A stretch of DNA of 64,000 bases, taken from NCBI GenBank assembly GCA_015062485.1, contig SUUO01000001.1:1691-65690 (forward strand), given 5' to 3'. Below the pieces are notes generated by a model that saw only the letters and a program-made list of their open reading frames with translations, searched no databases and was not told where the DNA came from. A program made the position numbers and the translations under genes. The stretch comes from Alphaproteobacteria bacterium (lineage in GTDB: Bacteria; Pseudomonadota; Alphaproteobacteria; Rs-D84). Below, one piece after another: positions 7,509 through 58,405 of the stretch (position 1 is the stretch's first letter; each line of letters starts with the position of its first letter).

Positions 7509-7596
7509 GGAGCGTTGGCAGAGTGGTAATGCAGCAGATTGCTAATCTGTGACCGGTATTATCGGTCCATAGGTTCGAGTCCTATACGCTCCGCCA
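7509..7596 (+). tRNA. tRNA-Ser(GCU), CCA encoded
   Basis: Manual cloverleaf: acceptor GGAGCGT/ACGCTCC, anticodon loop TTGCTAA, long variable arm GACCGGTATTATCGGTCC, T-loop TTCGAGT. Confidence 0.9.
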
Positions 7597-8904: not shown

Positions 8905-9086
8905 TAAATAAAAGTTTATCGCAGGAAGTACAAACAGAATTTTTTGCAAAAAAAATTCTGTCATCCCGGTGCTTGACACCGGGACCCAGGTCATATTTCC
9001 TTTTTATTTGCTTTCACCTGGATTCCGTGGTCAAGCCACGGAATGACAAAAACGTAAAACGTTTTTATTAAATAAACTTTTATTTA
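8905..9086. repeat. nested palindromic MITE-like element, copy 1
   Basis: Outer inverted repeat TAAATAAAAGTTTAT (8905-8919) / ATAAACTTTTATTTA (9072-9086). Inner arms of about 33 bp lie at 8959-8993 and 9016-9048, each with its own hairpin (CCGGTG-CTTGA-CACCGG; CCGTGG-TCAAG-CCACGG). Confidence 0.6.
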
Positions 9087-9095
9087 TCTAAGTAA

Positions 9096-9124
9096 TTGCG
9101 TAAGGGGAAAGATTTAGTTATAAT
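9096..9124 (+). promoter_or_regulatory. sigma70-type promoter of Cys-rich cassette 1
   Basis: TTGCGT (9096-9101), 17 nt, TATAAT (9119-9124). The same architecture occurs at 25676-25704 and 50473-50501. Confidence 0.7.
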
Positions 9125-9130
9125 TGGTGT

Positions 9131-9334
9131 GTTATGGTGGTTTGCCATAATGGGGTGTGAGAACCCGTGCAACAAGCAACCGTACGCAAATATATTGTTG
9201 TGTGCCGTTGATTATAAAAACTCCTGATCTTTACTGTCAGGGGGGCTGTGAATATATTGAATAAACAGCACAATTCTTGTTGATTGTTCTCAACCTCCTG
9301 ACCACTCGAAAGTTTTCGGTGGTTTTTGTTTTTT
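9131..9334 (+). ncRNA. conserved structured leader / candidate riboregulator, copy 1
   Basis: Begins about 7 nt after the -10 box. Hairpins TTATGG..GCCATAA and GGGT..ACCC. CTCCTGA (9221-9227) or CCTCCTGA (9294-9301) can each pair with TCAGGGG (9237-9243). Terminator ACCACTCGAA..TTCGGTGGT plus a T-run at 9300-9334. The paralogue lies at 50508-50733. Confidence 0.55.
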
Positions 9335-9363
9335 CGCGAAAAACAATGAAAGGAGTTGAACAA

Positions 9364-9801
9364 ATGAAAAAACTTTTAATATTAACCGCGGTTGGCGCAA
9401 TGCTTGCCGCGCCCGCAATGGCGGTACAAAAATGTGTGGCGTTGGATGCGTCGACCACCACGTGTACATCAACATCGACGATGAGTAAAGCGGATTGGTC
9501 CGCCACGTGTACAACGAATGACACCAGTGTCCCGATTAAGGGAATTGCGATGTGTTCAAATCAGGCGGCGGACGCACAATTTGGCACGTCAGATGTGATA
9601 ACAACGGTAAGCGGCTCATCGGATACGACCAATTTAAATTGCTGGTGTAAAATGGTTGAGCCGGCCGTGTCGTCTTGGGTGTTCGTCATCGCGAGCTCGT
9701 CCGCCGGTTTTTGCGCGAACGTCTGTTCGTACCGCTGTTCGCATTACGCCCAGAACTATTCCGCGTTCCGGTCCGCGCTGTTTGGTTCATTGGCAAATTA
9801 A
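9364..9801 (+). CDS. secreted Cys-rich protein, N-domain type
   Basis: AAAGGAG RBS 8 nt upstream. Signal peptide MKKLLILTAVGAMLAAPAMA. Ten Cys in the mature part. Paralogous to 50763-51215 and to the N-half of 51233-51952. Confidence 0.8.
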   Translation: MKKLLILTAVGAMLAAPAMAVQKCVALDASTTTCTSTSTMSKADWSATCTTNDTSVPIKGIAMCSNQAADAQFGTSDVITTVSGSSDTTNLNCWCKMVEPAVSSWVFVIASSSAGFCANVCSYRCSHYAQNYSAFRSALFGSLAN

Positions 9802-9811
9802 GGGGACGCGA

Positions 9812-10084
9812 ATGAAACGAATAATATTTTTGTTAGCGGGCGCGCCGATTGTGGCGTACGCCACCGCGCCGTCAACGTCGTGTCCGGCGGGTTATATCGC
9901 GATTGATGAGCCGCAAATCACAATTGCAACAAGTTGCCCCAGTGGCACAACCGCCATTGGCACGGCGGAATCGTGTTTGGTGTCATCACCGGCAGGCTCG
10001 TGCATAATGTATGCGCCGGTGGGAATGTCGTACACCGACGACACCGGCACGTATGAATTTACCGATGTGTGCCCAATGTCATAA
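9812..10084 (+). CDS. secreted Cys-rich protein, C-domain type (CPAGY...YEFTDVCPMS)
   Basis: Own signal peptide MKRIIFLLAGAPIVAYA. Matches the C-half of 51233-51952 and the C-terminus of 25814-26710. Confidence 0.75.
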   Translation: MKRIIFLLAGAPIVAYATAPSTSCPAGYIAIDEPQITIATSCPSGTTAIGTAESCLVSSPAGSCIMYAPVGMSYTDDTGTYEFTDVCPMS

Positions 10085-30275: not shown

Positions 30276-30352
30276 TGGTGCGAGCAAAGGGGCTCGAACC
30301 CTCGACCTCAACCTTGGCAAGGTTGCGCTCTAGCCAACTGAGCTACGCTCGC
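30276..30352 (-). tRNA. tRNA-Gly(GCC), CCA encoded
   Basis: The reverse complement GCGAGCGTAGCTCAGTTGGCTAGAGCGCAACCTTGCCAAGGTTGAGGTCGAGGGTTCGAGCCCCTTTGCTCGCACCA folds as a cloverleaf with anticodon loop TTGCCAA. Confidence 0.9.
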
Positions 30353-36803: not shown

Positions 36804-39800
36804 ATCAACCGCGTGATACGTTGTTCCGCCAATATTTACATTCAGCGCACCAGATTTATTCCCACTGGCCAGGCTGGCATAACACATATCGCCCGCACTT
36901 GTTTTTACAACCAATGTATGAGACGTACGCTTTGACGAATACAGCGGTATCGATAGCCCAGTACTTAATTTTATATGGGTTATGCCCGCCTCGCAGAACT
37001 GGCCACACAATCCATCAGAGGTCAGATTATACCCACTGTTACACACCCAGGGACAATTATCTGTACCACCGCCAGACCCCGTATAACTGGCATTATCAGG
37101 TGCCAATGTGCACGCCGTGCGGGTTAATTCACCTGCCGCCGACCAGTAGCCTGTGCCAACATCCTGGCAAACATTTTCATACAAATCATCCAGTGTATCA
37201 TAACCCGTGTCCTGTGTTGCGGTACTGCTGGCATTAAAGTACACATTATAGTACCCGCCATCACAAGTTAAATTACTTCTGTTTACCCAGCAAGTCTTGG
37301 TTGTTCCATCAACGCCATACGTGTATGTGGTAAGGCTGTTGTCGGTGTAAGCATCAACATAACACGAATACTGGGCCATTGTTCCATCATCTAATGTTTT
37401 ACTGTTGAACGTCACATTGCACCCCGACGAAACTGTATGGTCACCTGTGGCACCAGTATTCCAATATGAATAGCCCCTTACATTTGCGGTATTATTGCTT
37501 GCCGTTGGGCAACTGATGCACGAGGACTGACCGGTGTATGGCTGGTACGTTGCACCGGTACAGGCTGTACAAGCGGATGCGGTATTTGCGGATGACGTAT
37601 AATAACCCGCCGGGCATTTGGTACACGATGCACTGTTCGAATAATAGCCCGCACCACAATTAACCGTCAATGCGTATGTTGCGGTTGCACTTTTATAAGT
37701 TGATGTTTCGGCACTGGTCACGGTAATTGTGGCCGTTCCGGCCTTGACATAAGTCATCGTGACGGTTGTACCGCTGATTGCGACGGTCGCGACACCGGTT
37801 GCATTGGACGATACGCTTAATGTGCCACCACTGGTATTCGTGCTGACTGTAAACTGTTTGGTCTTTGCACTGTCTGTATAAGACAATGTTCCACTGGCCG
37901 CACTTAGTTTCAAAGTGTTCGTACCCTTGGCGGTTGTGACCGCAACAGTTTTGCTGGACGCTTTATAGTTCGTAGTCGCGGCACAGTTTACCGTAATCGT
38001 CGCACTGCCCGCCGCTTTCCACGTCACGGTCACGGTACCACTGTTTATTGCAACCGTTGCCTTGGACGTGTCACTGGATGATACGGTTGCGGTACCATTC
38101 TCGCTGCAACTGGCGGTAAAGGTTCCAGTAGTTGTTGGATATGTAACCGTAAGACTTGTTTTGCTGACCGTTGTCGTACCATTAATCTTGTTAACCGTCA
38201 CACTGTACGTCTTGGAACCACTTAGGTAATTGTCGTTACCCGCCGCGGTTACGGTAATGGTTGTGCTGCCCGCCTGTTTACCGGTCATCGTGACCGTCGT
38301 ACCACTTACCGAGGCGGTGGCAATGGTGCTGGATGCTGACGACACACTTAATGTACCCTGGGCACCGCTTACCGTAAATGTTCCGGTACCGTTATAATCA
38401 ATCGAGCCACTGGTCGCGCTTAAACTAATCGGGTTTGTACCCTTGGCGGTCGTGACCTTATAGGTGGCGGTTGTCGCATTATACTGGTCACTTTGCGCCG
38501 CGGTTACCGTAATCGTCGCAGTTCCCGCAGATTTCCACGTGACTGTGCCCGTTGTACCACTTAAACTTACCGTTGCAACGCCCGTCGCATTGGATGCGGC
38601 ACTTAGCGTTCCGTTACAAGATCCCTTGGACACGGTAAATGTACCCGTGGTCGTTGGATATGTAATCGTAGCGGTTGTGGGGCTGACACTTATCGAGCAA
38701 GTCCCACGATTAACCGTTAACGCATATGTCTTGGAACCACTGTAATAATTCGCATTACCCGCCGCGGTTACGGTTATCGTTGATGTTCCGTATTTAACCG
38801 GTGTCATCGTAACCGTCGTGCCACTTACCGATGCGGTCGCAACGGATGTTGTGCCAGACGTCACGGAAACAGTACCCTGGGCACCACTTACCGTAAACGT
38901 TCCGGTGCTTGGATATGTTATCGAACCACTGGTCGCACTCAGGCTAATCGGATTCACCGCCTTTTTGGTATACAATGTATATGTTGCACTGGATGCTTTA
39001 TAGTTCGTGGTCGCAGGACAATTTACCGTAATCTTCGTCGTACCATCAGCCGCTTTCCACGTCGTACTTACCTGGCCAGTGCCAACCGTTGCACTTGCAT
39101 ACGTCGACGTATCCAAAGACACAGTCGGTGTAGCACTCTCGCTACAACTTACTGTAAAGCTGCCAGAAGTCGTTGGGTATGTCAGTGTGCCACTGGCCGC
39201 ACCCAAAGTTGTCGTACCATTAATCTTGTTAACCGTCACACTGTACGTCTTGGAACCGCTTAGATAATTGTCGTTACCCGCCGCGGTTACGGTAATGGTT
39301 GTGCTGCCCGCCTGTTTACCGGTCATCGTGACCGTTGTACCACTTACCGAGGCGGTGGCAATGGTGCTGGATGCTGACGACACACTTAATGTACCCTGGG
39401 CACCGCTTACCGTAAATGTTCCGGTACCGTTATAATCAATCGAGCCACTGGTCGCGCTTAAACTAATCGGGTTTGTACCCTTGGCGGTCGTGACCTTATA
39501 GGTGGCGGTTGTCGCATTATACTGGTCACTTTGCGCCGCGGTTACCGTAATCGTCGCAGTTCCCGCAGATTTCCACGTGACTGTGCCCGTTGTACCACTT
39601 AAACTTACCGTTGCAACGCCCGTCGCATTGGATGCGGCACTTAGCGTTCCGTTACAAGATCCCTTGGACACGGTAAATGTACCCGTGGTCGTTGGATATG
39701 TAATCGTAGCGGTTGTGGGGCTGACACTTATCGAGCAAGTCCCACGATTAACCGTTAACGCATATGTCTTGGAACCACTGTAATAATTCGCATTACCCGC

Positions 39801-42488
39801 CGCGGTTACGGTTATCGTTGATGTTCCGTATTTAACCGGTGTCATCGTAACCGTCGTGCCACTTACCGATGCGGTCGCAACGGATGTTGTGCCAGACGTC
39901 ACGGAAACAGTACCCTGGGCACCACTTACCGTAAACGTTCCGGTGCTTGGATATGTTATCGAACCACTGGTCGCACTCAGGCTAATCGGATTCACCGCCT
40001 TTTTGGTATACAATGTATATGTTGCACTGGATGCTTTATAGTTCGTGGTCGCAGGACAATTTACCGTAATCTTCGTCGTACCATCAGCCGCTTTCCACGT
40101 CGTACTTACCTGGCCAGTGCCAACCGTTGCACTTGCATACGTCGACGTATCCAAAGACACAGTCGGTGTAGCACTCTCGCTACAACTTACTGTAAAGCTG
40201 CCAGAAGTCGTTGGGTATGTCAGTGTGCCACTGGCCGCACCCAAAGTTGTCGTACCATTAATCTTGTTAACCGTCACACTGTACGTCTTGGAACCGCTTA
40301 GATAATTGTCGTTACCCGCCGCGGTTACGGTAATGGTTGTGCTGCCCGCCTGTTTACCGGTCATCGTGACCGTTGTACCACTTACCGAGGCGGTGGCAAT
40401 GGTGCTGGATGCTGACGATACGCTTAATGTACCCTGGGCACCGCTTACCGTAAATGTTCCAGTACCGTTATAATTAATCGAGCCACTGGTCGCACTTAAA
40501 CTAATCGGGTTTGCCGCCTTATTCACCGTACAGGTAAACGAGCCAGTTTTAGTTGTATAGTTCGTTGCGGTTACCTGATAATAAATCGTATATGTACCCG
40601 CATCCGTTTTTGATATTGCACTGGTTGATGTATAACTGCCGCTGGCGGTGCCGTATTTTACGGTCGCACCACTGCTTGGTGTCGTTACACTAACCGTGCC
40701 GCAACTTTGCGCGCTACCGTTATATGTCAGCGTCTTGTTAGATGCACTGGCACTGATTGTTGCGTTTTCAATCGTACAACCAAATGAACCTGTTTGTGTC
40801 ACATAGTTTGGATGTGTGACTTGGAAATATATAGTTTTGCTGTCTGCAACATTAGTAACAGTTGGCGCAGATGTCAGATTATAAGTACCCGCTGTTGTGC
40901 CATATTTAATCGTTGCGCCCGATGGCCCATCTTCATCCAGCAGACCTGTACAGGTCATAGCGGTGCCATCATAAACCCTTGAATGGTCAACCCCCAATTC
41001 TTCCCAGTCTGCCTTGGTCACCGTACAACTGAACGATCCGGTTTTATCCGTATAATCGGTTGCGGATATTTTGTAATAAATGGTCTTGCTGTCCGCAACA
41101 TTGGTAATTGTTGGGGCGGTGCTGGTGTATGTGCCGGTGCTGCTGGTGGCGTATGTGATGGTTGCGCCCGACGGGGATGATACCGATATACCACCGTTAC
41201 AAGTCAATGCGGTGCCATCATAAACCTTGGTTTGGGCGGTTGGTCCCGTCACCGACATACACGTCCATTGGGCATACAAGGTGCGGTCCCCCGCAATATT
41301 CCAGGCACGCGCCGACGCCCCCGCCGCGGTATAATATTGTGTACCACCCGATGCCGCACTGTACCAACCATTGAATTTACAGCCGGTCTTGGTTGGTTTG
41401 GTCGTGCTGATTGTCGGCATCGCGACACCATATGTTGCGGTTACGTCCGCCGTTTGTCCGCCCGAACCACCGTTGGCATCAAATGATACAGTATAAGTGT
41501 TTGCAACCCAACAAGCGTACAAAGCACTTGTACGTGTTGTAGTTAATGACGATGTTCTGTAACCAGTCGCGCTGATATAACGGGTGGTAGATGATGTACA
41601 GCCCGACGTCGATGCCGCATATCCATCAAATGTATATCCCGTTTTTGTTGGAATTGTAATCGGATTTGTCGTGGTCGTCATAGCCGTCGCGTGCGCCGAG
41701 TCCAGATATACATTAACCCCATATCGCGTATAAATCGCCGTTGTGCCGGCCGTTGTAGCACTGTTGTTATTTAATGTGATTGTGAAATCATCCCCGGTTT
41801 TTTGCGCATAATACGTCACGGATGATGCGGTACTGGTTACCGTGACCGATGTTGTTGTGGTGCTGGGGCACGACGCCAATGTGGTTGACGACGATGACCA
41901 ACCGCCACAATATTTATAATATCCACTGTACAAACCATTTGTTACACCGTGGGAACTGCTTGTCTGGTCGGTTATCGTCGGTAATGCGCACGACGTGCCA
42001 TAATAGCATTGTGTTGATACACTGGTTGTGCTGGTCGCAGATGCGGTTGTTCCCGTAACAGCATTGGTTAGCGATACCGTACCATTACCGCTGTTTTTGC
42101 TTAATGTGACGGTACGATAACACTGGGTGCGGGCGGTCGACCCCGTAGACTTGGTCGTCCAATAGTTATTTGCACTGGTGGTTGTGCTACCGGTATCACA
42201 GTCAAGACGCGCATTTGCGTTACTGGTTGCAGAGCCGCCGGGGCAATAATAGCCAACCTCGCACAGGGTACAGGCATTACCAACCTGAGCGGTTGTGTTT
42301 GGGGTGCCATCCACGGTCATATAATACCCCGCGTTACAGGATGTATACATCTTGATATCGTTACATGTATACCCCGCAGATAAGGCGGAGGACACCGACA
42401 TCAACAGAACAAGTGTAAAAGAGAAAAAAAAGTGGTGAATTTTTCGCGCAATTTTATTACTTAAAAAATTCCCGATATTCTGTTGCAT
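36801..42488 (-). CDS. giant secreted repeat protein (adhesin-like), 1,895 aa
   Basis: GGAGG RBS 6 nt before the ATG at 42488. Signal peptide ...LLMSVSSALSA. N-terminal Cys-rich CxxGYY modules. Listeria-Bacteroides-type repeats (YTVSFDANGGSG...GWY...LYAQW). Three YDG/MBG-like repeats. About 11 Ig-like (Big_2-like) domains. C-terminal Cys-rich CPAGYY region. Confidence 0.9.
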   Translation of the reverse strand: MQQNIGNFLSNKIARKIHHFFFSFTLVLLMSVSSALSAGYTCNDIKMYTSCNAGYYMTVDGTPNTTAQVGNACTLCEVGYYCPGGSATSNANARLDCDTGSTTTSANNYWTTKSTGSTARTQCYRTVTLSKNSGNGTVSLTNAVTGTTASATSTTSVSTQCYYGTSCALPTITDQTSSSHGVTNGLYSGYYKYCGGWSSSSTTLASCPSTTTTSVTVTSTASSVTYYAQKTGDDFTITLNNNSATTAGTTAIYTRYGVNVYLDSAHATAMTTTTNPITIPTKTGYTFDGYAASTSGCTSSTTRYISATGYRTSSLTTTRTSALYACWVANTYTVSFDANGGSGGQTADVTATYGVAMPTISTTKPTKTGCKFNGWYSAASGGTQYYTAAGASARAWNIAGDRTLYAQWTCMSVTGPTAQTKVYDGTALTCNGGISVSSPSGATITYATSSTGTYTSTAPTITNVADSKTIYYKISATDYTDKTGSFSCTVTKADWEELGVDHSRVYDGTAMTCTGLLDEDGPSGATIKYGTTAGTYNLTSAPTVTNVADSKTIYFQVTHPNYVTQTGSFGCTIENATISASASNKTLTYNGSAQSCGTVSVTTPSSGATVKYGTASGSYTSTSAISKTDAGTYTIYYQVTATNYTTKTGSFTCTVNKAANPISLSATSGSINYNGTGTFTVSGAQGTLSVSSASSTIATASVSGTTVTMTGKQAGSTTITVTAAGNDNYLSGSKTYSVTVNKINGTTTLGAASGTLTYPTTSGSFTVSCSESATPTVSLDTSTYASATVGTGQVSTTWKAADGTTKITVNCPATTNYKASSATYTLYTKKAVNPISLSATSGSITYPSTGTFTVSGAQGTVSVTSGTTSVATASVSGTTVTMTPVKYGTSTITVTAAGNANYYSGSKTYALTVNRGTCSISVSPTTATITYPTTTGTFTVSKGSCNGTLSAASNATGVATVSLSGTTGTVTWKSAGTATITVTAAQSDQYNATTATYKVTTAKGTNPISLSATSGSIDYNGTGTFTVSGAQGTLSVSSASSTIATASVSGTTVTMTGKQAGSTTITVTAAGNDNYLSGSKTYSVTVNKINGTTTLGAASGTLTYPTTSGSFTVSCSESATPTVSLDTSTYASATVGTGQVSTTWKAADGTTKITVNCPATTNYKASSATYTLYTKKAVNPISLSATSGSITYPSTGTFTVSGAQGTVSVTSGTTSVATASVSGTTVTMTPVKYGTSTITVTAAGNANYYSGSKTYALTVNRGTCSISVSPTTATITYPTTTGTFTVSKGSCNGTLSAASNATGVATVSLSGTTGTVTWKSAGTATITVTAAQSDQYNATTATYKVTTAKGTNPISLSATSGSIDYNGTGTFTVSGAQGTLSVSSASSTIATASVSGTTVTMTGKQAGSTTITVTAAGNDNYLSGSKTYSVTVNKINGTTTVSKTSLTVTYPTTTGTFTASCSENGTATVSSSDTSKATVAINSGTVTVTWKAAGSATITVNCAATTNYKASSKTVAVTTAKGTNTLKLSAASGTLSYTDSAKTKQFTVSTNTSGGTLSVSSNATGVATVAISGTTVTMTYVKAGTATITVTSAETSTYKSATATYALTVNCGAGYYSNSASCTKCPAGYYTSSANTASACTACTGATYQPYTGQSSCISCPTASNNTANVRGYSYWNTGATGDHTVSSGCNVTFNSKTLDDGTMAQYSCYVDAYTDNSLTTYTYGVDGTTKTCWVNRSNLTCDGGYYNVYFNASSTATQDTGYDTLDDLYENVCQDVGTGYWSAAGELTRTACTLAPDNASYTGSGGGTDNCPWVCNSGYNLTSDGLCGQFCEAGITHIKLSTGLSIPLYSSKRTSHTLVVKTSAGDMCYASLASGNKSGALNVNIGGTTYHAVD
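38171..40513 (-). repeat. 1,038-bp tandem duplication (about 2.26 copies) inside the giant gene
   Basis: Identical shadow ORFs lie at 38464/39502, 38818/39856 and 39007/40045, all offset by 1038. The unit encodes four Ig-like domains. The few differences I found are mostly synonymous (one changes an amino acid). Confidence 0.9.
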
Positions 42489-42765
42489 CTGCACCCTCCA
42501 TACTTTCCTTTCGTTCGGATAAAAAATAACCGCCACAGATATTGGCGGTCGGGGTGTTAGAAAAATCATAAAAGAGAATGACCCCGCCGGTTTTCGGGGC
42601 AAGGCCCCTGTGGTATAACCGACGGCACCCCGACAAACCGGGGATTTACACAAAAAAAGACGCATTCCGCGCCATTTTCTATGTGCGGATCAGTGTGCAT
42701 TTTCTCACACCGCTCTTCTATGGGCTTTTCTAAGGCCCCGAACCCACATCCCTGTGAATTCATTG
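42489..42765 (-). promoter_or_regulatory. long GC-rich structured 5' leader of the giant gene with internal intrinsic terminator
   Basis: Hairpin ACCGCCA-ATATCTG-TGGCGGT plus TATTTTTT (42520-42550, minus strand), about 30 nt upstream of the ATG. Upstream of it lie several GC-rich helices (CCCCGGTTT...AAACCGGCGGGG, GGGGCCTTGCCCC). Confidence 0.5.
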
Positions 42766-50416: not shown

Positions 50417-50472
50417 TACGATATGAGATATATAATATAAATACTTAACCAAACTTTTATTTATCATTGCGA

Positions 50473-50501
50473 TTGCGCAAATGAAAACAATCGGTTATAA
50501 T
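50473..50501 (+). promoter_or_regulatory. sigma70-type promoter of Cys-rich cassette 3
   Basis: TTGCGC, 17 nt, TATAAT. Confidence 0.7.
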
Positions 50502-50507
50502 ACATGT

Positions 50508-50733
50508 GTTATGGCGGCTTGCCATAATGGGGTGTCAGAACCCGTACAATACGCGTTTGGAAACGAAATCCGGCGCGCCGATGGCGTGTTTTTTCGTATA
50601 TGAATCCAGACGAAAATCAAAAAACTCCTGATGTATTACGTGTCAGGAGGGTTGCGAATATATTGAATAAGCACACAATTCGTATTGATTGTTCTGAACC
50701 TCCTGACCACTCGAATTTATTCGGTGGTTTTTT
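50508..50733 (+). ncRNA. conserved structured leader / candidate riboregulator, copy 2
   Basis: Same 5' block GTGTTATGGCGGCTTGCCATAATGGGGTGTCAGAACCCGT as copy 1. GTCAGGAGG (50642-50650) is complementary to both CTCCTGA (50625-50631) and CCTCCTGAC (50699-50707). Terminator at 50705-50733. Confidence 0.55.
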
Positions 50734-50762
50734 CAAACATGAAAAAAAGGGAGATTTAGGTT

Positions 50763-51215
50763 ATGAAAAAAATTTTATTTATGGGCATAATCGCAACAAT
50801 ATTATCCGCGCCCACAATCGCCGCACAGATATGCGCACCGCTTCAATTTTACGGAAAATCACCAATACAAAGCAAATTATACTTTACTGCGGATTGGGAG
50901 TCCCATAACGTCAGAGCAGACACTGCTATAACTATGAAAAAACCAGTCCTAAGTGGCGTGGCCATTTGTTCGTCTGCAACCCAAACCGTATCGGGAATGT
51001 TGCCCACAATTAGCAGCGAAGCCGAATATAAATCCATTGTTTATTGCTGGATACGAGCAATCAAACCTGTTGTATCGGATTGGTTGCGCCTCGAAGAATA
51101 TGATACCGCTGCTGAATGTCTGCAAAACTGTTCATATGATGCGAACGTGTTTATGCTGGGGTTTCATAACTCGGATTTTGTAAACGATATTATTCAAGAT
51201 GGAAATCAAATATAG
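50763..51215 (+). CDS. secreted Cys-rich protein, N-domain type (divergent)
   Basis: GGGAG RBS. Signal peptide MKKILFMGIIATILSAPTIA. Shares GVAICS...YCW...PVVSDW...NCSY with 9364-9801. Confidence 0.75.
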   Translation: MKKILFMGIIATILSAPTIAAQICAPLQFYGKSPIQSKLYFTADWESHNVRADTAITMKKPVLSGVAICSSATQTVSGMLPTISSEAEYKSIVYCWIRAIKPVVSDWLRLEEYDTAAECLQNCSYDANVFMLGFHNSDFVNDIIQDGNQI

Positions 51216-51232
51216 AACCACGGGGGGTAGGT

Positions 51233-51952
51233 ATGAAAAAAATAAGCATTTTATTATGTATTTTGGCAATGCCGGCATTTGGTGCGGCAAAACGGTGTGT
51301 AAAACTGGACCCGGAAACAACCACATGCACGCCAACAAACCCAACAAATGGCAATGTTGACTGGACGGCAACGTGCACGACCAAAGACAATGAAACAATT
51401 CCAATTCTGGGGATTGCGGCATGCGGGATGGACGCTGCATCGGATGTTACCGAAATAGCCGGTTGGAAGACGACTGATAGTATGTATGTATATAATAGTG
51501 ATGAAGAGTCTACAACTGATATACACATTGCCGTTTGTAGGTGTCGGATAATATACCCCGTCGTATCTGCGTGGGTAGCAATATCATTTGGCCAAGACCC
51601 CACATATATTCCAGAACCATTGGGATATGGTCCAAACGTATGCCTGTACAGATGTTCGTACGCGTGCGCAAATCGTGGTGGTACGTTTTATGAGGCCCTG
51701 CTTACATCGGCGGCAAAATCACAAAGCGACACCGAATGCCCCGCCGGGTATATTGGTATAGATGAACCAACCTTCAAAATAGAAGAAACGTGCACCAATG
51801 AGACATATGTTAACTACACCCCACTGGGGGACGCAAATTCATGTTTGGATGACAATCCAGGCATAGACTGTGTATTGTATGGTGAAAAAAACACATCGTA
51901 CAATGACGGCAGTGGCGCATATGAATTTAATTCAATGTGTGTAATGGAATAA
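51233..51952 (+). CDS. secreted Cys-rich protein, fused N-domain plus C-domain
   Basis: Signal peptide MKKISILLCILAMPAFG. The N-half aligns to 9364-9801 (KRCVKLDPETTTCT...DWTATCTT...). The C-half aligns to 9812-10084 (CPAGYIGIDEP...YEFNSMCVME). Confidence 0.8.
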   Translation: MKKISILLCILAMPAFGAAKRCVKLDPETTTCTPTNPTNGNVDWTATCTTKDNETIPILGIAACGMDAASDVTEIAGWKTTDSMYVYNSDEESTTDIHIAVCRCRIIYPVVSAWVAISFGQDPTYIPEPLGYGPNVCLYRCSYACANRGGTFYEALLTSAAKSQSDTECPAGYIGIDEPTFKIEETCTNETYVNYTPLGDANSCLDDNPGIDCVLYGEKNTSYNDGSGAYEFNSMCVME

Positions 51953-58329: not shown

Positions 58330-58405
58330 TGGTGGGGACACAGGGACTCGAACCCTGGACCCAATGATTAAAAGTCATTTGCTCTACCAACTGAGCTATG
58401 TCCCC
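58330..58405 (-). tRNA. tRNA-Lys(UUU), CCA encoded
   Basis: The reverse complement GGGGACATAGCTCAGTTGGTAGAGCAAATGACTTTTAATCATTGGGTCCAGGGTTCGAGTCCCTGTGTCCCCACCA folds as a cloverleaf with anticodon loop CTTTTAA. Confidence 0.92.

Follow-up and report, generated by a model that had tools for sequence, protein, structure and literature searches.

The RNA that comes closest to the element reported here is sRNA-Xcc1 (Rfam family RF02221), an 88-nt RNA of Xanthomonas campestris with mapped ends, the 5' end of which lies at the closing helix (PMC2996969). According to papers that cite the original description, its describers called it trans-acting and placed it under HrpG and HrpX control (Chen et al., 2011). 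Copies are found upstream of symE in the commonest Xanthomonas integron cassette and upstream of an ORF6N-domain gene in APSE phages, and there are seven of them in Xylella fastidiosa. A different likeness is offered by the S-box/SAM-I, T-box and pyrR-type leaders, in which a promoter is followed by a structured leader, an intrinsic terminator and an open reading frame (ORF), a strand in the middle can pair with either of two mutually exclusive partners, of which one overlaps the terminator, and one type of leader serves a multi-gene regulon. Both likenesses meet in positions 50473-50762 of a 64,000-nt stretch of DNA, here called the window (assembly GCA_015062485.1, contig SUUO01000001.1, positions 1,691 to 65,690 of the forward strand), from an Alphaproteobacteria bacterium of the order Rs-D84. 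Read from its sequence, this region is one copy of a ~230-nt leader RNA that precedes secreted-protein genes, and the leader is an sRNA-Xcc1-like junction built into a two-state, terminator-bearing leader. The reading to which we give somewhat better than an even chance is that the region specifies a cis-acting leader RNA with its own sigma-70-type promoter, a terminator and two exclusive folds, A and B, the balance of which sets transcriptional read-through and access to the ribosome-binding site (RBS).

The window holds three copies of the leader: copy 1 (9096-9335), copy 2 (50473-50735) and a diverged one on the minus strand (42515-42763). Copies 1 and 2 belong to what we call type A and the diverged copy to type C. 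The region had been put forward, in an original prediction made from the sequence alone, as the second copy of a leader, and this was borne out: its two conserved blocks show 79% and 88% identity to copy 1, where homology to copy 2 spans positions ~9068-9335. The order of parts is the same in both type A copies, namely an AT-rich block, a sigma-70-like promoter, ~230 nt of structured RNA, an intrinsic terminator, a Shine-Dalgarno sequence and an ORF (Table 1). Only 3/6 positions of the -35 hexamer of copy 2 match, so a simple promoter scanner missed the element; the TTGnnn-17-TATAAT layout was found 6-8 nt upstream of the first hairpin in 106 related loci. That hairpin also forms in copy 2 as predicted, TTATGGC (50509-50515) pairing with GCCATAA (50521-50527). 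Relatives were sought by scanning one genome per species with the pattern ATTGTTNNNAACCTCCTGACCAC, which returned at least 112 stretches; all counts of leaders given here (109, 108, 99, 123 and so on) refer to leaders among the matches listed. The 109 distinct leaders were aligned with MAFFT, an alignment not fitted to structure, and a search with nhmmer and the family profile added diverged copies that the scan pattern did not select and that make up two further subtypes, B and C. Related loci are cited below by their L numbers.

The central claim of the original prediction was that one strand of copy 2, GTCAGGAGG (50642-50650), can pair with either of two others. An inverted-repeat search found it 100% complementary over 9 nt to CCTCCTGAC (50699-50707), and CTCCTGA (50625-50631) is 100% complementary over 7 nt to TCAGGAG (50643-50649). 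The pairing is less perfect in copy 1, which carries GTCAGGGGG and where one A-U becomes G-U, also as had been stated. The perfect repeat is not significant on its own, given that, when the 290-nt region was shuffled 1000 times with its dinucleotides preserved, 202 of the shuffles also held one of 9 nt or longer, and a case built on its length was rejected (20% of the shuffles equal it). The helix owes its significance to its conservation in relatives and not to the length of a single repeat: 108 of the 109 related leaders can form the 9-bp pairing, and 76 of the 109 can add a 10th pair. In the RNA we call the three strands C2 (CUCCUGA), G2 (GUCAGGAGG) and C3 (CCUCCUGAC). They change together across the three subtypes while G2 stays complementary to both partners, and the competing-helix idea is in this way supported by comparative evidence, although the earlier picture was incomplete.

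Minimum free energy (MFE) folding with RNAfold gave the same architecture, fold A, in both type A copies of the window (z ~ -5.1). Its elements are a 5'-terminal hairpin, P0; the long-range helices P1 (GGGGU and UCAGAAC with GUUCUGA and ACCUC) and P2 (CAAUACG with CGUAUUG); a four-way junction, closed by P2, of the variable arm Pv and the hairpins P3 (CUCCUGA:UCAGGAG, that is, C2 with G2) and P4; and the intact terminator. The partner of CCUCC in this fold is the 5' GGGGU and not GGAGG, and the Shine-Dalgarno sequence is predicted to be free. When fold A was projected on the 109-leader alignment, 95.1% of the cells held standard pairs, compared with 80.3% in column shuffles and 37-47% when the partners were slid, changes on both sides were seen in 32 of its 53 pairs, and the covariation score was 0.421 versus 0.156 after shuffling. 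P1 is paired in 99.2% of the cells and its three variable pairs are fully compensatory (for example, GC in 57 leaders, CG in 35 and AU in 17, with no unpaired cell among 109), and C2, invariant in type A, is 99.6% pairable with UCAGGAG. The original prediction had rightly called its two blocks conserved; what it had missed is that they are largely the two strands of the long-range helices P1 and P2, which covary strongly. The RNAalifold co-fold of the two window copies, which it had proposed as a check, returned fold A only, with seven compensatory pairs and with P2 compensatory between the copies, and did not return the 9-nt helix. Thermodynamic folding of the relatives agreed with the prediction in part, since the C2:G2 hairpin P3 is present in the MFE structure of 104 of 108 leaders but the 9-nt helix is disfavoured, by the amounts given below.

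The segment between the blocks deserves separate mention. It had been seen as a variable linker, with a small GC hairpin and a T run of its own, and it is indeed unalignable between the copies and longer in copy 2, where hairpin and T run occupy 50572-50594. These are not peculiar to copy 2, as they occur within the variable arm of 82 of the 109 type A leaders and in type C, and are missing from copy 1 and nine short variants. Because the insert forms a structured arm and bears the hairpin and U run typical of the family, its description as a free linker was not borne out. The internal terminator-like hairpin and U run sit ~140 nt 5' of the main terminator and could, from their sequence, be an early terminator, a pause site or a protein site.

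Fold B consists of a local GGGG:CCC(G) hairpin formed by the strands G1 and C1, the hairpin P5, and the G2:C3 helix (GUCAGGAGG with CCUCCUGAC; 9-10 bp), which closes a three-way junction with P4 and P5. P5 takes two nucleotides of P1b, the second segment of P1, and loops out the 3' strand of P2, and for this reason it cannot coexist with fold A. A combination of P5 and P2 as an H-type pseudoknot was considered and is excluded by geometry, there being no linker across the 7-bp stem and two nucleotides being shared with P1b. Another pseudoknot, between the P4 loop and CACAAUUC, was discarded because the candidates picked by eye (GAAU:AUUC and AUUG:CAAU) are not kept in L004, L006 and L007. The helices found only in fold B carry compensatory changes of their own. 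In the local hairpin, the pair 50530:50543 (G or A with C or U) is GC in 72 leaders, GU in 19, AU in 18 and AC in none, and the G1:C1 pairing appears in the diverged subtypes as GGGC:GCCC, GGGU:ACCC, GGGA:UCCC and GGAAU:AUUCC. P5 is paired in 99.2% of the cells, with A:U replaced by U:A in six type B leaders and U:A by C:G in one; in type B it reads ACUAU:AUAGU or ACUAC:GUAGU, and the type C versions are UCAU:AUGA, GUCA:UGAC and AAUC:GAUU.

The same holds for the helix that closes the junction. In type A, the switch strands C2 CUCCUGA, G2 GGUCAGGAGG and C3 CCUCCUGACC never vary. Type B has CUCCAACC as C2, GGUUGGAGG as G2 and CCUCCAACC as C3, with the variant G2/C3 combinations GGUUGGGG/CCCCAACC and GGUUGGAGU/ACUCCAACC; type C has CCCCGA, GGUCGGGGGG and CCCCCCGACC, respectively, with the variant combinations GGCCGGGGAG/CUCCCCGACC, GGCCGGGAAG/CUUCCCGACC and GGUCGGGA/UCCCGACC besides that of the window copy (Table 1). 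The pairing of G2 with C3 is thereby preserved through at least eight different sequence versions in subtypes B and C; these subtypes are few and are probably clades, so that some of the changes counted as independent may be single events. A perfect complement to C3 of at least 8 nt was found at the expected place in 10 of the 17 non-type-A elements (each p<=0.005 versus shuffles), and C3 strands exchanged between subtypes gave a complement of 4-5 nt on average. The portion of C3 left unpaired in fold A (UGAC, AAC or CGAC) tracks G2, which means that P1 and P3 alone are insufficient as an explanation. RNAalifold of six type C leaders produced fold B as the consensus, with covarying pairs in the closing helix, and those six sequences also show covariation between the fold A strands of P1, which argues that both folds are under selection. 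Both alternative folds are thus kept by compensatory changes, as in an attenuator, and the 3' domain of copy 1, when folded on its own, adopts the fold B three-way junction, P5 included.

The junction of fold B is also what links the leader to sRNA-Xcc1. The Rfam consensus of the latter and fold B share a 9-bp G/C-rich closing helix, two hairpins, a 6-nt joining strand and the closing strand, and the first hairpin has an AAUA-rich loop in both, P4 of the leader being its counterpart in the alignment. In copy 2, the helix 50642-50650:50699-50707 closes P4 and P5 with UCUGAA as the joining strand, which makes it a three-way junction of this kind. Over its full length (positions 1-87), the sRNA-Xcc1 model can be aligned with the G2-to-C3 domain of sister leaders. 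Full-length matches were obtained for L063, of type B (43.0 bits; E 1.3e-6 when 281 nt were searched), for L042 and L066 (35.9 bits each) and L100 (27.6 bits) and, in a permissive Rfam search, for the type C copy of the window (42540-42634, 34.4 bits, E ~1e-4). When folded in isolation, this domain of copy 1, L063 and the window type C copy gave exactly the sRNA-Xcc1-like junction; in that of copy 2 the closing helix forms, and the MFE structure takes a copy-specific inner pairing instead of P4 and P5. Both RNAs occur in several copies per genome, often right before small genes, and the type B leaders in front of small helix-turn-helix (HTH) genes recall sRNA-Xcc1 in front of symE and the ORF6N-domain gene. 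The leader differs in that its junction is embedded in a longer transcript, with its only conserved promoter-like element ~135 nt upstream of the helix, a 5' domain that can unfold the junction into fold A and a separate intrinsic terminator behind it, and in its setting, the chromosomal secreted-protein genes of an Alphaproteobacteria order, Rs-D84. The permissive searches also returned snoZ169, RNA-OUT and c4-a1b1 for the type A copies, which were set aside as chance-level matches (E 0.25-6.7), and a BLAST search of plasmids with the Rfam consensus of sRNA-Xcc1 found nothing.

A cis-acting, bistable leader that couples the strength of the terminator to RBS access is, on the folding models, the most likely and most economical reading of these data. 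Transcription would run from the sigma-70-type promoter through the ~230-nt leader to the intrinsic terminator. In fold A the terminator hairpin would be intact and the Shine-Dalgarno sequence free. In fold B the basal pair or pairs of the terminator would be lost and the A-rich/CUCCUGA strand freed, and this strand could then pair with the 3' arm of the terminator and its U tract, or with the Shine-Dalgarno sequence, so that the balance between the folds would set both polymerase read-through and RBS accessibility. The first C of the terminator stem (50707) is common to the terminator and the 9-nt helix, and with G2:C3 enforced 61 of 108 leaders lose the predicted terminator hairpin, while in most of the rest it becomes shorter. 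In copy 2, the forced helix leaves the A run and C2 predicted to pair with the terminator 3' arm and U tract, mostly through A/U runs. With the RBS included in the folding, fold B lowers the unpaired probability of the Shine-Dalgarno sequence from 0.73 to 0.15 and the energy gap between A and B shrinks; the freed C2 is the predicted partner of the Shine-Dalgarno sequence under fold B in 88 of 99 leaders. The motif CAGGAG is present in 50 of 107 RBSs of leader genes (as in L007, L010, L014 and L020) and in 14 of 653 of those of other genes in the same loci; it also lies within G2 and is complementary to CUCCUG. A search of the window for complements to the P4 loop or to the A run plus C2 returned the leaders themselves only. 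Since the same leader stands before many secreted or surface genes and some small HTH regulators, it would coordinate a whole regulon. That the transcripts begin and end at the predicted sites, that the two folds exchange in vivo and that their balance answers to a signal we infer.

Several observations weigh against this reading. Forcing the G2:C3 helix costs 8.5 kcal/mol in copy 2, 8.6 in copy 1 and a median of 10.6 in 108 leaders. The median falls to 5.45 kcal/mol before the 3' arm of the terminator is made, with at least 15 leaders within 1.4 kcal/mol; since fold B is the less stable of the two, some factor or kinetic route would be needed to reach it. The overlap of helix and terminator amounts to 1 nt in the type A copies of the window and to 2 nt in 76 of 109 leaders, several type C leaders have a C-A mismatch that puts the overlap in doubt, and for this type RNAalifold sets the helix beside the terminator. 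Fold B is predicted to weaken the terminator and yet to sequester the Shine-Dalgarno sequence, two effects of opposite sign, and the transcript start, the termination and the read-through are all predicted from sequence. As the switch strands are invariant in type A, covariation within that type is absent, and this invariance is for C3 partly a matter of ascertainment, because the pattern used to gather type A, ATTGTTNNNAACCTCCTGACCAC, holds part of C3 and of P5 constant. With regard to sRNA-Xcc1, all five matches (27.6-43.0 bits) lie below the gathering score of RF02221, which is 53 bits, and type A copies 1 and 2 gave no sRNA-Xcc1 match at E<=10 in the permissive Rfam searches. Finally, every sequence derives from metagenome-assembled genomes (MAGs).

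The alternatives to such a leader differ in how much of the above they can accommodate. If the element were a static structured 5' untranslated region, only fold A would matter, for example through mRNA stability conferred by the 5' hairpin, insulation and a constitutively leaky terminator that keeps expression low, and G2:C3 would be a by-product or a folding intermediate. This would agree with fold A being the strongly predicted ground state and bearing most of the covariation signal; however, the UGAC of C3, unpaired in fold A, changes with G2 in subtypes B and C, the helices G1:C1 and P5, exclusive to fold B, covary, and the junction of fold B matches an independently curated RNA family, and we regard a static role as quite unlikely. 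An explanation at the DNA level, in which the element is a mobile promoter cassette or a recombination substrate for surface-gene shuffling or phase variation and the RNA structure is irrelevant, is very improbable: the element is multi-copy and always stands, promoter included, 5' of diverse, non-homologous surface-protein genes, but the dozens of compensatory changes in at least six helices and the conservation of stems beside variable loops speak for an RNA, and no flanking inverted or direct repeats and no association with recombinases were seen in the loci looked at. A stand-alone small RNA (sRNA), in which the ~230-nt transcript or a processed, Xcc1-like core of ~70-90 nt acts in trans and the downstream gene is transcribed by incidental read-through, would have its own promoter-like element and terminator, as is the case here, and would find precedent in sRNA-Xcc1, with its mapped ends and its description as trans-acting; three of ~120 leaders lack an ORF directly downstream, and CUCCUGA and CCUCCUGA look like anti-Shine-Dalgarno seeds. 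Still, a co-oriented ORF follows 115 of 123 copies at a fixed distance too short to hold a separate promoter (in copy 2, 29 nt from the U run to the ATG), the CUCCUG motifs lie within helices and not in loops, the bias of the downstream RBSs to CAGGAG points to a relation in cis, it would be difficult to explain why a genome of <1 Mb should keep dozens of sRNA genes that are almost the same, and canonical sRNA-Xcc1 copies are themselves found upstream of genes (symE, the ORF6N-domain gene). We thus consider a function in trans unlikely.

A small-molecule riboswitch would refine the cis-acting leader rather than replace it, with a metabolite or second messenger that binds one junction, either the four-way one of fold A or the three-way one of fold B, and so tips the balance and switches the secreted-protein regulon. 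Highly conserved unpaired nucleotides are present in the junctions (the A-rich strand, the GG after G2, CACAAUUC and the 15-nt P4 loop), a terminator with a competing helix is the usual expression platform of riboswitches, and there are many copies per genome before surface or secreted proteins. Cyclic di-GMP (c-di-GMP) riboswitches are in some species present in many copies before surface, adhesion and secreted-protein genes. The resemblance of the leader to the c-di-GMP-I/II riboswitches (GEMM) is limited to this regulon logic, and it has no Rfam match to them, nor to any other Rfam riboswitch family. Type C combines a different internal domain with the same switch strands, which would fit either exchangeable sensors or no ligand at all, and the relative sRNA-Xcc1 has no known ligand in the literature. 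A ligand-binding version is therefore a possibility that we hold as rather doubtful. A leader-peptide attenuator was rejected, as an ORF of at least eight codons starting with ATG and preceded by a Shine-Dalgarno-like motif is present in only 16 of 109 leaders, with neither position nor length conserved. Returning to the two-state leader, the succession of a predicted promoter, leader and terminator directly upstream of a promoterless ORF is that of an attenuator, but several features set it apart from the S-box/SAM-I, T-box and pyrR-type leaders: at the family thresholds it matches none of 4227 Rfam families, its alternative helix overlaps the terminator by 1-2 nt only, there is an extra internal conserved hairpin with a U run, and the freed strand also targets the Shine-Dalgarno sequence.

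Table 1. Coordinates of the leader copies, of the parts of copy 2 and of the associated open reading frames in the window.
Feature	Position	Strand	Description
Promoter-like element	50473-50501	+	-35 TTGCGC 50473-50478, 17-nt spacer, -10 TATAAT 50496-50501; read from sequence
Predicted transcript start	~50506-50509	+	From promoter position
P0, 5'-terminal hairpin (UUAUGGCG / UGCCAUAA)	50509-50527	+	All 8 pairs vary on both sides in 109 leaders; 98% of cells paired
G1 GGGGU	50529-50533	+	Partner is ACCUC 50698-50702 (fold A) or C1 (fold B)
P1b 5' strand UCAGAAC	50535-50541	+	Partner GUUCUGA 50691-50697 in fold A
C1 CCCG	50541-50544	+	Local hairpin with G1 in fold B
P2 5' strand CAAUACG	50547-50553	+	Pairs with CGUAUUG 50681-50687; 96.8% paired; 6/7 pairs vary in both strands
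Variable arm Pv, base CGUUUGGA / UCCAGACG	50554-50612	+	Base helix covaries
GC hairpin inside Pv	50572-50590, U run to 50594	+	Terminator-like score
A-rich tract and C2 CUCCUGA	50613-50631 (C2 50625-50631)	+	C2 is the 5' strand of hairpin P3
G2 GUCAGGAGG	50642-50650	+	Two alternative partners, C2 (fold A) and C3 (fold B); covaries with both across subtypes
P4 hairpin UGC/GCA, conserved 15-nt loop GAAUAUAUUGAAUAA	50653-50673	+	3/3 pairs vary on both sides
P5, in fold B only	50675-50692	+	ACAAU 50675-50679 with AUUGU 50688-50692; loop is the P2 3' strand
P1b 3' strand GUUCUGA	50691-50697	+	Alignment of 109 leaders
P1a 3' strand ACCUC	50698-50702	+	Alignment of 109 leaders
C3 CCUCCUGAC	50699-50707	+	Fold B partner of G2
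Intrinsic terminator CCACUCGAA / UUCGGUGG	50707-50733	+	Followed by UUUUUU 50728-50733; from folding; stem sequence varies, pairing kept in relatives
Shine-Dalgarno GGGAG	50749-50753	+	Precedes ORF 50763-51215
ORF after copy 2	50763-51215	+	150 aa, Cys-rich, signal-peptide-like N-terminus
Copy 1 (type A)	9096-9335	+	-35 9096-9101, -10 9119-9124, T run to ~9335; precedes ORF 9364-9801
ORF after copy 1	9364-9801	+	145 aa, small, Cys-rich, signal-peptide-like N-terminus; paralog of the 150-aa ORF
Third copy (type C)	42515-42763	-	C2 CCCCGG, G2 GUCGGGGUG, C3 CACCCCGAC, terminator CCGCCA..UGGCGG; nhmmer with family profile and folding
ORF after type C copy	36804-42494	-	~1900 aa, immunoglobulin-like repeats; Pfam Big_2 and ephrin-receptor-like Cys-rich matches

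Regarding the genes behind the leader, a co-oriented ORF with a Shine-Dalgarno-like motif was present ~40-140 nt downstream in 115 of 123 pattern matches, and in copy 2 the U run of the terminator ends 29 nt upstream of the ATG. Inspected by eye, nearly all of these ORFs have a signal-peptide-like N-terminus; they are very diverse, range from 68 to 751 amino acids (aa) and are often rich in cysteine. The proteins after copies 1 and 2 show 28% identity, compared with 79-88% in the blocks of their leaders, so that the leaders are far better conserved than the proteins, which argues that selection acts on the non-coding RNA part. A Pfam search assigned no family to either of these two proteins, and the AlphaFold model of the downstream protein, the first of the cassette described below (pLDDT 72.5), had no fold match in the PDB (best E 0.63). 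The 110 homologs of the downstream protein are all hypothetical and come from MAGs of gut 'Alphaproteobacteria bacterium' or Candidatus (Ca.) Enterousia. Two-gene cassettes were observed at 9364-10084 and 50763-51952 (+) in the window and in L001, L004, L006, L007 and L008: a protein of ~145 aa is followed by a second secreted-looking one, which is mostly 90 aa long (239 aa behind copy 2) and is also without a Pfam family, and the cassettes occupy unrelated genomic neighbourhoods. A block, AAACTTTTATTTATC, is found just 5' of the -35 hexamer (9068-9090 and 50445-50467 in the window; also L003, L004, L006, L008 and L027); the subfamily in front of the 145-aa genes keeps this block, which could serve as an UP element or be bound by a protein. 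Behind type B leaders, small XRE/Cro-type HTH proteins of 72-117 aa often take the place of secreted ones (L027:399-614, L064:3472-3693, L083:2341-2586, L096:1338-1688(-)). Three leaders have no ORF directly after the terminator (L010, position 6666 of the reverse complement; L066, position 2701 of the reverse complement; and L088), and these orphans may be decayed copies or stand-alone RNAs. At curated thresholds, the only Rfam matches in the whole window were three tRNA genes, at 7509-7593 (+), 30279-30352 (-) and 58333-58405 (-).

In all, more than 120 leaders were found in gut Ca. Enterousia genomes (order Rs-D84). Single MAGs carry several, at least eight in RGIG9136 and at least seven in RGIG5353, which is close to the window. 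Among the matches listed, all come from Ca. Enterousia or uncultured gut Alphaproteobacteria except for one chance match in Streptomyces and a few evidently mis-binned contigs. The latter are L062, L065 and L087, labelled as a Bacteroides fragilis bin, and L099, labelled Muribaculaceae, which carry the leader and are probably mis-binned Enterousia contigs. The hosts of the leader-bearing MAGs include sheep, deer, goat, horse, rabbit, chicken and human. Six loci were fetched through homologs of the downstream protein, and the leader was upstream in all six. Members of the order Rs-D84 have genomes of <1 Mb, a fermentative metabolism and few recognisable transporters or regulators (PMC12306168).

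It is seldom that covariation reveals both states of a bistable RNA, as it does for this leader. It is conceivable, though we put it clearly below an even chance, that it represents a new effector-responsive RNA switch, with a small molecule or a protein as effector, by which Ca. Enterousia, gut symbionts with reduced genomes, control most of their secreted and surface proteome, and that sRNA-Xcc1 would, by extension, be the effector-binding or on/off fold of a widespread cis switch present in integron cassettes, phages and chromosomes. The link to an RNA known from integrons, phages and plasmids makes the role of sRNA-Xcc1 as a cis-acting switch testable. For Ca. Enterousia, uncultured gut Alphaproteobacteria of the order Rs-D84, a leader of this kind, repeated ahead of proteins that are secreted, Cys-rich or giant and adhesin-like, would hold a central place in controlling what the cell surface presents to hosts or partner microbes.

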